Source of the DNA: Eledone cirrhosa
Lineage: Eukaryota
Direction of reading: 5' to 3'
Length of the DNA stretch: 64,000 nt
NCBI GenBank assembly: GCA_964016885.1
Contig: OZ024744.1
Location: forward strand, 112,096,001-112,160,000
The notes beneath the pieces are model-generated. The model had not been told where the DNA came from. It was given only the letters and a program-made list of their open reading frames with translations, and did no database searches. This document shows, piece by piece, positions 16,253-54,539 of the stretch (positions are counted from its first letter, which is position 1; every line of letters starts with the position of its first letter). The translations under genes and the position numbers were made by a program.

Positions 16253-16460
16253 TTTTTATTTTATAGAAGGAGCTTCTACAGGACTAGTACTGTTTCATTC
16301 AGATGAAATCTTCAGGAAGCGCTTCCTGAAGATTTCATCTGAATGAAACAGTACTAGTCCTGTAGAAGCTCCTTCTATAAAATAAAAAAATTTTACTCTG
16401 CCATGTATTGAGTACCTTACTTACTGTGGTTATCCCCGACTCAACCCGGGACCTACGTAT
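16253..16460 (+). mobile_element. Penelope pseudo-LTR palindrome (68-bp arms) plus about 70-nt tail, in (TA)n
   Basis: Perfect inverted repeat 16253-16320/16321-16388 with axis ggaagc|gcttcc; tail present only on the right. Confidence 0.75.
16321..16369 (+). ncRNA. Type I hammerhead ribozyme (mirror copy on minus strand 16272-16320)
   Basis: gcttc CTGAAGA t-ttca-tc-tgaa-t GAAA cag-tactagtc-ctg TA gaagc. Stem II is weak. Confidence 0.7.
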
Positions 16461-18525
16461 ATACATATATATACATATATATATATATATATCTGAAACT
16501 CTCTACTTGAGTAGGCCATGGTGTTCAAAACATGACTGGGATGTGAATCATGATTTGAAAGATGAAGTTAACCACTAGCACAATTGGTCTGATGAGCGTG
16601 AACATTTAAACACTGCATTGAGGAGAGTAAAGCAACAAAGTAACACTTAAATCTACACAAAACAGACAAGGGAGATAATTCCAAATTTAAAAATAATTAA
16701 GTAGGTCAACTACACCAAAATATATTAAGGAGAAAAAAGATATGCAGTTAAGGGGTGGAGAATTAGTCAGATCTTTGGCAAGTATTCTGAGTGACAAACA
16801 AGAACATGTTTTAATCTTATTAAACATCATTAGCTAATTATACAGACATCAACCATGACTGCTAGATTTTATAAAAAATGCACATATGTAAGTTTGACAT
16901 AACATGGAGACTAATGTTAACACTATGTATAATATGTTCCATATATATATATATATATCTACCACAATGATAATATATTTATATATGTATTTTATTTATT
17001 TATTTGCATTCCAGCCGAGGGGCTGAGGCCACGCTGGGGCACCGCCACTGCATATATATATATATATATGTTTGTATGTATATTGTTATGCACAGATGTA
17101 ACACAATAATTAATGTAAAATTACTCAGGGTCGCCTTCTTCATGTACAATACATAATAAAGTGTCATCGCAATATGTCAAACAATGTGGAATTAATAAAG
17201 ATAGAATACTATTCTTCAAGTAAATGATATATTGAGAATATTGTAAAAATACAATTTTTTTTTTTTTTTTTTTTTTCCTTAAATTTTATTTAATTGCCTT
17301 CAACTGGAATAGTAAAAGAAATCAACGCAAGTGTATAATTAATCACATCTCTTGTAAAGAGAACAAAGTGTTGCCTCAGAAAATATTGGAAAATTGGAAT
17401 ATATTGAATATATTATTTCAGAGAAAGTTTAACTCTGTACTACTTGGAATTGCATTAATGAGACCAAGAGAAGCCCTCCAGCCAGTTTTCTGTTAGCATA
17501 TGTAGAGTATATATTGATATTATACTCAAATGTATATACATATAGATATGATACATAAATTGAAAAGTAAATTGACAATATGCATATAAATTAACAAAGA
17601 ATGTGTTACATTTTCTTCTGTAATCAGTAAAGTAATCCATGAAACATTTAAAAAAAGATGATAATGAAGATGGAAAAGTGATATATAAGCATTATGATAT
17701 AACAGTGAAATGTTACGATATGAATGCTAACGGAAGTTGACATTTGAAAGTTTTAACAGAAGTGAATCTTGAAATAAGCAATACATTTTTTTATATATAA
17801 GATTATTTATGTTTAATCAAGAGCTAAAAAATTTAGTAGATAAATTACATAAAATCCATTCATGATTTATTTAAAGTAATCCAACTTATTTTAATAATGT
17901 GATGTAAAATAATAAACTGGACACAGTCTCGCAGTTCTCCAATCATTGTATATAAGATTGACAAATATAAAACAGTTCTATTACTGCATCATATGAAAAT
18001 CTAAACTCTTTACTTTAGTTTACTGCAAATTTTCACAATGATCTGTTCACTAATATAGATATTATAAACATTTGAATTAACAATGACCATTTTAAAAGAT
18101 ATTTTCTGTTAAATCATTACAAGATGTTAAGAGTTAAGGAAAATAAACTGGCAGCAGAGTTTGGCGCATTACTCCGAGTAAATTTAGCCATACTCAAAAC
18201 CACACTCCATTACTTTTCTTTTGAAAAAGAGGTCATAACCTTGAAATTTTTATGAAATATAGGGTAAAATTGTAAACTGTTGTTTCACTTTTTTTCCTTT
18301 ATTTTAGTCTGCTTTGGTTTTCACTCCTGTATTTTTAACTTACATTGAACCAGCTTTTCACAAAACAATCATAACCACATATCACAAAATGTTTCATATA
18401 AATTATACTGCCTTCTTCTCACCAAGCCAGAGCCAGGTTGAATTTACTATGATACTAAGAATATACTGTATCAAAAACACCAACAGATGACATGGAATAA
18501 AATTGAAAATAATATAGTTAGTTAC

Positions 18526-19185
18526 CTTTGGGAATTCCGCCTCTGATGATGGGGAGTCACTGTTATCAACTTGTCTATGCATATCAATAGCAAAATCCCC
18601 CTGTAAGTCCTTACTTTTGGTCTTTTGAGACAACCAGTTGTCTGTGGTACCACCATTTAATGGTTCCTGTTTGAGTCTCTTCTTAAGGGCAAACATCTGC
18701 CTGATTGTAGTTGACCCTTCACTGTTTCTGTTATCATACACAGACCTTATCTGGCTAAGTTTTATCAATGGTAATTTCGAATCAACTATACAACGTTTAT
18801 GCCGGTTCCGAACCAGATTTGAAGGATTTAAATCTGAAGAATTAAAGCTTTCATAGTGCGACTGGAATGAGATTTGATAGTTTTCGTCGTTGTCAAAATC
18901 AACAGGCTCCTGCTTGATGGTGGCGGATGTGGTGGCAGTAGCAAGGGAAGCGTTGGAAGTAACAACAGCTGTCACTGTTGCTGTTGTGGTTGTGGTTGTT
19001 GTTGCTGCTGCTGTTGTTGTTGTTGTTGTTGTCGTTATTGTCGTTGCACTGATATTGTTTTTGGTGATGTTTTTCTCTAGAGAGGAAGGGTTTGTTGCTT
19101 CAACATCATCGACAGTGTTCTCCTGGCTTTGGCTACTGGTTGGTGACAATACTGGTGACGACCCTTCAGTCATCTTCTTACCACT
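18526..19185 (-). CDS. Host-gene exon (660 nt, phase 0-0), low-complexity Ser/Thr-rich segment of a probable nuclear/transcriptional regulator
   Basis: Acceptor tgtttctggtttcag|AGT at 19185 and donor AAG|gtaact at 18526; open frame. Possible start ATG at 19173; poly-Thr/Ala; two SUMO-consensus motifs IKQEP and LKQEP; basic KKRLK. No family recognised. Confidence 0.75.
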
Positions 19186-19257
19186 CTGAAACCAGAAACA
19201 GACACAGAGATGATGCCATGTTAAATGTTTTATAAACAATATTTCACATATCTTTAT

Positions 19258-19895
19258 ACTACTACCACCACCACCACCACCACTACTACTACTACTACTA
19301 CTACTACTACCACCACTACTACTACCACCACCACCACTACTACCACCACCACTACTACCACCACCACCACCACCACTACTACTACTACTACCACCACCAC
19401 TACCACCACTACTACTACTACTACCACCACCACCACCACCACCACTACTACTACTACTACCACCACCACCACCACTACTACTACTACTACCACCACCACC
19501 ACCACCACCACTACTACTACTACTACTACTATTACCACTACTACCACCACCACCACTACCACTACTACCACCACTACCTCTACTACCACCACCACCACTA
19601 CCACTACTACCACCACCACTACTACTACTGCTACCACCACCACCACTACCACTACTACCACCACCACCACTACCACTACTACCACCACCACTACTACTAC
19701 TACCACCACCACCACTACGACTACTACCACTACCACCACCACCACCACCACCGCTACTAATACTACAATTTCTACCCCTACTACTACTACCACCACTACT
19801 ACTATACTACTACAATTTCTACCCCTACTACTACTACTACTACTACTACCATCAATACCACTACCCCACCACTACTAGTAGTAGTAGTAGTAGTG
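19258..19895 (+). repeat. Compound (ACT/ACC)n trinucleotide microsatellite
   Basis: Direct inspection; lies in the intron just upstream of the exon acceptor. Confidence 0.95.
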
Positions 19896-20699
19896 ACAGT
19901 AGTATGGTGGAGTGCTAAAAAGACTAACTGTCGCCCCCCACAGACACACCACTAAAAGATCAAGAGTTCAAACCCTGCCAATATCATCCTCCGACCCCAA
20001 CCCTGACCCGACCCATGTACCACTTAGTAAAATCCTACATTGTTTGCCACAACCTATGTATGAAGCAGCAGACACCAAAGGCCAACTTACTTCTCTCTCT
20101 ATTTATTGCTTGGCAAAAGACAAAATAGTTTTCTTTTTTAATTCAAAACATATCCTTAAAAAACAAAAGGCAGAAATAACAAAAAAAAAAACAAACAAAA
20201 AAAAAACAAACAAACAAACAAAAGAAAACAAACAAACAAGAAAACTAAAATTATTATAAAATAAAAATGTTGAAGAATGAAAATAAAGTGTGATTTAAGG
20301 TCTCCCAATGAAGAAAATATTGGAATGGTGGCAGGGAAGGTAGGTTATTTCTAAGTTCATTATTACACATTGTATTGTTATATGGGTTTAAAGTTTAACC
20401 CTTTTCGTGTGAACTCAGCTAAAACTAGCTCTGTTTCTATGAAACAAAATCACCCAGTTTAAACAGTTCTTATATAAATTAAAATCTTTGAAGTTACTAC
20501 CACATTAATGAAATAGTAATTTTTAGTAAATCCCTCAAAAATTCATCATTGATTAATTGAATTAGGGTATATATTTCATTATAAGTATGTCAAATTCCAC
20601 CAAGATCAACTTTACCTTTCACCTTTCTGGGATCAATAAAATAAAGTACCAGTCAATTATTGGGGTCAATGAAATTAACTTCTTTCACTTATTTCTGAG

Positions 20700-53960: not shown

Positions 53961-54134
53961 ACATACATACATACATATATATATATACATACATATATAA
54001 ACACATACATACATATATATATATATACATACACAGACACACATATATATATATATATATATATATACATATATACACACACATATATATATACACATAT
54101 ATATACACACACATATATATATATATATACACAC

Positions 54135-54290
54135 ATGGAGGCACATGGCTTAGTGGTTAGAGCATTGGCCTTGCAATCGAAAGGTTGTGAGTTCAATTCT
54201 CAGACTGGGTGATGTGCTGTTTCCTTGAGCAAGACACTTTATTTCACATTGCTCCAGTTTACTCAGCTGTAGAAATGAGATGATAGGGAA
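54135..54290 (+). mobile_element. tRNA-derived SINE (CORE/V-like)
   Basis: A box tggcttagtggt, B box gagttcaattc; same family as 2878-3040. Confidence 0.8.
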
Positions 54291-54311
54291 TGGGGTACGG
54301 TTTATATATTG

Positions 54312-54377
54312 TATTTTGTCTGAGGAAGGCATACCATATTTTTAATATGATATCCCTGAAATATATATAATGAAATA
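54312..54377 (+). ncRNA. Type I hammerhead ribozyme (solo copy of the 24681 family)
   Basis: tattttgt CTGAGGA agg...cct GAAA tatata TA atgaaata. Confidence 0.75.
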
Positions 54378-54539
54378 AATATGGTTTTATAAATATAGTT
54401 TCCATTTATTTAGTATCGTATATATAATATATATATATATATATTAACCAATGAAGTGTATATATATATATATATACGCACACTTCATTGGTTAATGTGT
54501 TTTGGTGAGTTTGTTATTGCCTGATTGATTTGTTCATTT

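Follow-up and report, generated by a model that had tools for sequence, protein, structure and literature searches.

The window analysed here is a 64,000-nt stretch of the 3.0-Gb genome of Eledone cirrhosa (contig OZ024744.1, positions 112,096,001 to 112,160,000; G000:C28:112096001-112160000). It holds many insertions of Penelope-like elements (PLEs) in (TA)n runs, several of which consist of two arms in inverted orientation, only one of them carrying a tail. We refer to the short end of such an insertion as site S and to the tail end as site T. Positions are counted from the first base of hairpin 1, a bulged hairpin that follows site S; a second one, hairpin 2, can follow site T. Five families were named by their window copies: N (30293-30902, 36235, 45230 and 48627), A (16253), B (24402 and 54300), C (24821) and D (14738 and 39339). 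The copies are listed below (RT stands for reverse transcriptase, ORF for open reading frame, UTR for untranslated region and pLTR for pseudo-long terminal repeat).

14733..14910, plus strand: family D tail-ended copy, hairpin 1 at 14845-14865
16253..16459, plus strand: family A insertion, short inverted arm 16253-16320 (minus) and tailed arm 16321-16459 (plus)
16395..16413, plus strand: hairpin 1 of family A, beginning 6 nt past the short-arm end
24402..24789, minus strand: family B insertion whose tailed arm lies on minus (to 24402) and whose short arm, on plus, ends at 24789
24466..24485, minus strand: hairpin 1 of family B, 5-7 nt past the short-arm end
24821..25572, plus strand: family C insertion, short-ended arm on minus, tailed arm on plus
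25498..25522, plus strand: hairpin 1 of family C, 3-7 nt past the short-arm end
30293..30493, minus strand: family N palindrome with the tail on the minus strand and hairpin 1 at 30341-30364
30702..30902, plus strand: family N palindrome with the tail on the plus strand and hairpin 1 at 30831-30854
36235..36362, plus strand: family N solo copy, tail-ended, 5' end directly on a TA run
39318..39640, minus strand: family D short-ended unpaired copy, end at -8..-6 from hairpin 1 of its own subfamily, 5' limit approximate
45230..47908, minus strand: family N body, 5'-truncated, with 457 aa from its RT and GIY-YIG ORF (46534-47908), 3' UTR, pLTR and tail
48627..49139, minus strand: family N palindrome with its tailed arm on minus and a short arm on plus that runs to 49139, hairpin 1 at 48675-48698
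48927..48948, plus strand: hairpin 2 of family N at the palindrome centre, mirror copy at 48895-48916 on minus
54296..54420, plus strand: family B short-ended unpaired copy, 5' side adjoining a tRNA-related repeat at 54137-54296

Arm ends were found by comparing the window with itself and extending each inverted repeat outward. This gave 16388, 24491/24789, 25494, 30372/30493, 30702/30823 and 48704/49139, and the short-arm ends in a preliminary description of this DNA came out at the same values. Scanning the window with the motif RCTC-N3-loop-N3-NN-GAGY (start = RCTC) placed hairpin 1 at 16395 (+), 24485 (-), 25498 (+), 30364 (-), 30831 (+), 48698 (-) and 14845 (+). The hairpin does come right after the arm ends, as had been described, but one closing pair too many had been counted in its starts; the gaps at the six window insertions are 6, 5, 3, 7, 7 and 5 bases. 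For the short arms of family N, a distance of 5-9 nt had been proposed and 7, 7 and 5 nt were measured. Within the family A insertion the arm symmetry stops at 16388 and the tailed arm contains a hammerhead-like core, and in the family C insertion the short-ended arm reaches beyond the 5' limit of the tailed arm by ≈475 nt of element sequence. The unpaired family B copy (54300-54420) ends at -7..-5, like the 24789 arm to which it had been compared. The copy at 39339 also ends just before the hairpin; the earlier distance of about 4 nt came from a relative with 75% identity, while its own subfamily gives -8..-6.

The two N palindromes at 30293-30493 and 30702-30902 are probably not independent of each other, since they have the same centre and the same end variant. 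Their tails point outward, but the centre they have in common is in direct orientation. Between them, at ≈30534, there is a short arm from another family. The region 30293-30902 probably arose when a single insertion was duplicated and its centre flipped.

As anchors for a genome-wide analysis we used exact patterns from the hammerhead, which lies upstream of sites S and T; they gave 48,125 matches for family N (one 29-nt pattern), 3,122 for A, 502 for C and 3,598 for D. Together with the window, 280 loci (2.03 Mb) were analysed, namely 120 search loci, 140 stretches on listed matches in contigs C1 and C2 and 20 neighbours of the window. These loci are mostly centred on pattern matches and not random, and family B was sampled only as background. 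Each end is given as an interval instead of a point, because the bases at the junction may belong to either the element or the (TA)n. The anchor is covered by 631 copies, of which 312 end at S, 292 at T and 27 inside the tail; the 3' end joins a TA run in 540 of them. A strict set, where a perfect TA run directly follows the last aligned base, comprises 426 copies from the five families with 223 S ends, 200 T ends and 3 ends inside the tail. The lower bound lies at -10..-2 for 194 of its 226 non-T ends. The S ends have their mode at -8..-5 in family N (65/72) and at -8..-6 in D (20/32), and at a lower bound of -7 in B (25/28) and C (37/41), where 26 ends scored as (-7,-7) stem from one variant reference and equal -7..-3 on the common sequence. 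In one N subfamily group, 18,316 ends at S stand against 17,736 read-throughs across the genome. T ends are sharp even in family A (41 of 50 at +63). The predicted bimodal distribution, with a sharp peak just 5' of the hairpin, is seen beyond the window, in both arms and solo copies. A further class of family B ends at -13 was rejected; it reflects an internal ATATAT and is absent from the strict set.

Ends concentrate in a zone 3-9 nt upstream of either hairpin, and 1-5 nt of AU microhomology to the (TA)n is usually present. As a control we counted AT-alternating patches between the anchor and the tail end in the commonest tailed copy of each family. There are 10-17 per family, with only 1-3 located at -10..-2. 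In B, C, D and N, patches that match or exceed these in length, whether upstream or within the tail, hardly ever serve as ends (binomial p < 1e-12 for each family), and the longer ones within the B and C tails are unused. The preliminary description had named TA microhomology alone as an explanation that would count against a hairpin-set start; the zone near the hairpin is used far beyond its share of AT-alternating sites. In family A, where a run of A occupies -12..-5, the ends slide to AU patches at -13 and -19. Microhomology sets the choice of base inside the zone, but the zone itself is not explained by microhomology alone. What had been taken for a single fixed base is a short zone before the hairpin.

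The tail end is likewise internal. At junctions between tandem units the tail passes into a leader and an ORF, with a second bulged hairpin after it. Two classes of cDNA 3' ends, one internal and one at the tail end, had been proposed; both exist, but the second is also internal. In families N, B and C (irregularly in D) a tandem unit leads from the hammerhead through site S and hairpin 1 to the tail and site T, and from there through hairpin 2 to the ORF; in N, B and C hairpin 2 lies 6-9 nt after T. The distance from hairpin 1 to T varies between 63 and 84 nt among families, while that from T to hairpin 2 stays at 6-9 nt. For family N, 322 places run from the tail into hairpin 2, 6 nt after T (the search pattern included its 5' strand), and the hairpin was complete in all eight junctions read. 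One N tandem unit of 3,542 bp (L282) has an uninterrupted 784-aa frame, and by eye the hairpin 2 sequence at the centre of the 48627-49139 palindrome is the sequence that follows the tail in this unit. Family B gave 19 places picked on the 5' strand of hairpin 2. A script found the matching 3' strand of the outer stem and the bulge, 9 nt after T, in 18 of them, and the hairpin of the 19th was seen by eye; the inner stem in this family has 2 bp. One common continuation was present in 8 of 19 pattern matches for family C, with hairpin 2 at 6 nt in four of six informative places (one variant, one broken). The tail of family D continues into a leader and then the ORF (L124 and L201), and a further family in L270 has both hairpins by eye. 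The inner stem of hairpin 2 begins with C-G in all cases seen and that of hairpin 1 mostly with T-A, a difference that may underlie asymmetry.

N units also stand head to tail in arrays, at G000:C1:91476611-91487266 and C1:437200344-437210965, which contain four units or more and repeat every ≈3.54 kb; L282 is one such unit. The tail end of family C is joined directly to family B sequence in L143 (position 5032) and L283, in L143 at hairpin 1 of B. These joins may be nested insertions or template switches between families.

How S and T ends are combined was evaluated in 161 head-to-head pairs without a TA run between the anchors. There were 140 S+T, 7 S+S and 2 T+T pairs and 12 with an unclear end, so that S+T accounts for 140 of 149 classifiable pairs; independent choice of ends would give S+T in half of them. 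Some of the S+S calls may be damaged T arms, since one end lies far upstream in several. Among the matches listed, 100 S and 93 T coordinates gave 50 pairs within 300 nt, all of them S+T, in a set that overlaps partly with the pairs from the fetched loci. The two end classes proposed earlier are real but not alternatives; two-armed insertions nearly always have one of each. The insertions have the features of canonical endonuclease-positive (EN+) PLE units, i.e., an inverted 5'-truncated copy and a tail at one end only.

The two arms of an insertion resemble each other more than arms from different insertions, with 2.8 vs 6.7 differences in 36 nt for family N and 0.4 vs 2.9 for B; the effect is weak in C (6.5 vs 7.3), and 8 of 59 N pairs are as different as the median foreign pair. 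This likeness is expected from one source transcript, and gene conversion would have the same effect. Of 185 S+T insertions, 171 could be resolved. In 107 of them the two arms stop no more than 30 nt apart, in 53 the S arm extends further 5' and in 11 the T arm does; detection favours tail-only partners in this comparison. Both orders occur among kilobase-long pairs, and S-ended copies with ORF bodies were found in L001, L243, L203, L219 and L238. T arms stop between -25 and +35 in 34 of the 171 insertions, as if blocked near site S. The arm junctions show overlap in 81, are flush in 24 and have a gap in 66, to which later deletion may contribute. Copying of whole palindromes from a few masters was considered and rejected; the centres vary, and family A copies with the same centre (L083 and L087) differ in their short ends. 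Among 247 unpaired copies, 21 S and 24 T solos join a TA run directly at the 5' end, most others being unresolved there.

Hairpin 1 was also looked for outside the five families. Screening of 2,029 segments between TA runs gave 211 asymmetric inverted repeats, and the 92 outside the five families fell into 31 clusters, of which 29 were kept after two simple-repeat clusters had been dropped. A bulged hairpin is present in 11 of the 29, always 7-9 nt after the short-arm junction, while shuffled tails gave an expectation of 1.6 clusters with a hairpin anywhere in the first 12 nt. In these 11 clusters the outer stems are ACTC/GAGT, GCTC/GAGC or GTTC/GAAC, and the inner stems cover all four Watson-Crick types. 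Four more clusters (0, 15, 21 and 23) have the outer stem only, which is missing in the clusters with 34-60 nt tails. In published consensi (PMC8557442 File S7), all inspected by eye, the sea cucumber element Hydra-1_Ajap opens with both hairpins, ∼61 nt apart, and Hydra-2_Ajap and Hydra-2_Amil end in hairpin 1 and tail. Clusters 1, 2, 5, 11 and 14 and the window region 35650-35870 represent abundant (TA)n-targeted asymmetric inverted repeats that have 32-77 nt tails and no hairpin; they are perhaps other PLE clades with a different start signal.

The elements had been labelled Neptune, a name that does not hold; judged by their sequence motifs they are PLEs of the Hydra type. ORFs with Hydra features (PMC8557442 section 11) were found for N, B and D. 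The 784-aa frame of L282 has YRDDG and a YQC...YIG region near the C-terminus, in keeping with one ORF for RT and a C-terminal endonuclease of GIY-YIG type, together with CNCPDRSIC at 639 (a CxCX5C linker), CNLC at 737 and CKH at 765; the frame of L298 is 748 aa long. RWR and DKT occur in N (L282) and B (L298) and RWK and DKT in D, and a regular expression for RWK/RWR and DKT matched in L219, L238, L270, L282 and L298. Neptune elements have a CX2-5CxxC linker and DKG (PMC8557442), in place of which CxCX5C and DKT were found. A Pfam search of two ORFs matched no family, and families A and C had only partial ORFs in the sampled loci. The core words and stems of a hammerhead can be seen by eye in the pLTR of all five families, with a U3-A8 variant in N, a type described in PLEs in the part of PMC4209133 used here; Rfam at the gathering threshold gave no hammerhead match. 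The published features of the Hydra clade, as far as taken from PMC8557442, agree in RWK/RWR, DKT, the CxCX5C linker, CxxC and CxH, the putative hammerhead and (TA)n targets, and the clade has an octopus member, Hydra-1_Obim. The N unit differs in being 3,542 bp long vs usually under 3 kb in that account. The words "hairpin" and "stem-loop" have no matches in the main text of that paper.

These data suggest a mechanism in which both nicked (TA)n strands prime cDNA on the element RNA, each at a site set by a hairpin, one at S and one at T; from the sequence patterns we consider it the probable course of events. Two RT active sites would act on a single transcript or on sister transcripts from the same locus. 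The last 2-4 bases of each primer would pair with an AU patch in the short zone 5' of a hairpin, and the hairpin would set the start by docking an RT, so that its role would be to bind or position the enzyme. Both cDNAs would then come to a halt, in many cases close to the hammerhead, or close to site S in the case of the T cDNA. Their 3' ends would be joined into an inverted repeat that has its tail at one end, and retention of a single cDNA would leave a solo of either class. Hairpin-set starts of one kind each would explain the long-known one-sided tail. We tentatively put forward a more specific version, in which twin priming would be programmed. The pair of small, non-identical bulged hairpins would be conserved between this genome, sea cucumber and coral. 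Each hairpin would dock one RT and place the start on one strand a few bases upstream, in the fashion of telomerase, which would leave exactly one tail in every two-armed insertion.

Several observations weigh against this reading. The S ends of family A scatter over ≈25 nt (-25 to -2, with 30 of 50 at -10..-2), so the fixed start point of the preliminary description is sharp in four families only. Two pattern searches gave no hairpin 2 for family A (a continuation beginning TATA lay outside these patterns). In its single junction (L317, G000:C4:65167500-65167800) the tail runs in an open frame straight into the N-terminus of a Hydra-type ORF, and the canonical hairpin 2 is absent there; the family is an unexplained exception. 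Hairpin 2 of family D has its outer stem at 6 nt but an irregular inner stem and a 60-nt loop in two places. The strict hairpin motif is missing in 18 of the 29 other tail clusters, and the cluster test was not fully blind; it rests on the enrichment and the narrow offset, because the filter already demanded pairing and was broadened once the tails had been seen. The hairpins are weak, with folding z-scores of +0.65 to -3.5 and only one of eight below -2. By eye, the Hydra-1_Amil and Hydra-1_Crog consensi show partial motifs only and Hydra-1_Obim neither hairpin (PMC8557442 File S7). When both arms are anchored, S-longer vs T-longer insertions number 19 to 8 (p 0.052), and later deletions could have shortened T arms. 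In the in vitro study of Poseidon_Ac (PMC11167929), the start site is the same for both strands and called non-homologous to the cut DNA, and initiation is located within a stem loop, not before one.

Among the rival explanations, we regard it as unlikely that only hairpin 1 or the whole tail docks the enzyme, hairpin 2 having another role, e.g., in translation or packaging. Site T would then be set by primer pairing with (UA)n of read-through transcripts or by a fixed reach from hairpin 1. Family A fits this idea with its sharp T ends in the absence of a recognisable hairpin 2, as do the irregular hairpin 2 of D and the fact that most genomic copies are followed by (TA)n without hairpin 2. 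It is opposed by the variable distance from hairpin 1 to T next to the constant one from T to hairpin 2, and read-through needs T already set in a tandem transcript. A quite improbable alternative is that a cDNA started at the tail end folds back and the second strand terminates before hairpin 1, S being a stop. Self-priming has been proposed for PLE palindromes, according to the part of PMC3846280 used here, and folding back would account for the S+T pairing, the likeness of the arms and the near-symmetric centres of 107 among the 171 insertions. In 53 of the 171, however, the S arm exceeds the T arm by more than 30 nt, the window insertion 24821-25572 being one of them. An S arm of this kind holds sequence that is missing from the T arm and is not a fold-back copy of it; moreover, S and T solos occur about equally often (21 and 24), and ORFs are present in S-ended copies.

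Very improbable, in our view, is that the ends are points of resolution or cleavage, by an endonuclease or RNA processing beside the hairpins, and not RT starts. A start and a cut are indistinguishable from genomic ends, and PMC8557442, in the part used here, ascribes the tail to endonuclease (EN)-mediated resolution of an intermediate. Against this, RT starts were mapped in vitro to the two tail boundaries, though in another clade (PMC11167929). The hammerhead cut site, 25-58 nt upstream of hairpin 1, is also no end peak downstream of the anchors, ends upstream of an anchor being outside the scoring. We give hardly any credence to TA microhomology as the sole determinant of the ends, regardless of hairpin distance. 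The 1-5 nt AT-alternating overlap at most junctions and the family A ends reaching -19 and -13 would agree with it, but it is contradicted by the control described above, since most patches, among them comparable ones in B, C, D and N, are hardly used. It also leaves the S+T pairing without a reason, and 11 other families have the hairpin at 7-9 nt.

Other repeats in the window include a relative of family C at 13780-14135 (minus, hairpin 1 at 13869) and two more palindromes at 11840-12006 and 34390-34579. The repeat at 54137-54296 is tRNA-related and resembles a short interspersed element (Rfam tRNA at 54144-54207), with further copies at 2880-3038 and 15148-15307; this tRNA-like match was the only one in the Rfam search. 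A Mariner-like transposase remnant (59202-60192) lies within 58811-60520. Across the sampled loci, 5' ends and palindrome centres cluster at -72..-77 (A), -55..-70 (N), -160..-175 (C) and -100..-110 (D) relative to hairpin 1. These positions coincide with, or lie close to, the hammerhead's stem II or 5' edge and not its cut site; they may be points where the RT stalls.

The proposed paired starts can be compared with known systems. In twin priming of L1, reportedly described by Ostertag and Kazazian in 2001, cDNA is primed from both strands of the target on a single RNA, and the products are joined as an inversion. The 34 of 171 T arms whose end falls within the tail or just past it, close to the S start, resemble this. 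The second L1 site is said to be a chance T-rich match used occasionally, whereas here both sites are fixed beside a conserved structure and most arms overlap in sequence. In telomerase the RNA template is set by an adjacent structure and primer and template pair over a short stretch; its RT is related, the PLE RT being the closest relative of telomerase. This is an analogy only, as no repeat synthesis occurs here and the likeness rests on the general scheme, not homology.

Poseidon_Ac cuts and extends both strands in vitro, and a dimer is predicted (PMC11167929). As stated in the preliminary description, internal initiation has been published for this Poseidon-clade PLE: two internal RT starts bound the tail, and RNA 3' of the start is needed (PMC11167929). 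The likeness lies in two internal starts with the tail between them, an AT-rich target and a hammerhead upstream; the clade is another one and the tail measures 30-40 nt, vs 63-84 nt plus spacer here. That paper names no common positioning hairpin (the word "hairpin" has no matches) and reports no one-of-each pairing. The inverted pLTR with a tail at one end was already known (PMC3846280, PMC8557442), with the same head-to-head 5'-truncated copy and single tail. As far as these two papers were used here, it is explained by self-priming on an antisense template or EN-mediated resolution, and they contain no S+T pair counts and no hairpin. Nothing on hairpins or pairing was found in the parts of PMC13282606 and PMC3649969 used, and the literature gave no positioning hairpins or obligatory pairing by title or abstract, with subscription journals and Repbase outside the coverage.

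The one-sided tail and two RT start sites are already published. Not found in the literature covered were the putative positioning hairpins, hairpin 2 beyond the tail end and the pairing of one end of each kind, all of which are well supported at the level of sequence. The pattern is a real, genome-wide feature of a known class of elements. It bears on the origin of the inverted ends and the one-sided tail of PLEs, a question as old as the description of the tail. A motif of 20-25 nt at a set distance from both end sites, together with the one-of-each rule, opens the question to point-mutation tests in an existing assay (PMC11167929). It also predicts that both signals would be present only on transcripts that cross a tandem junction, and it offers a rule by which ends can be drawn in a very abundant class of repeats.

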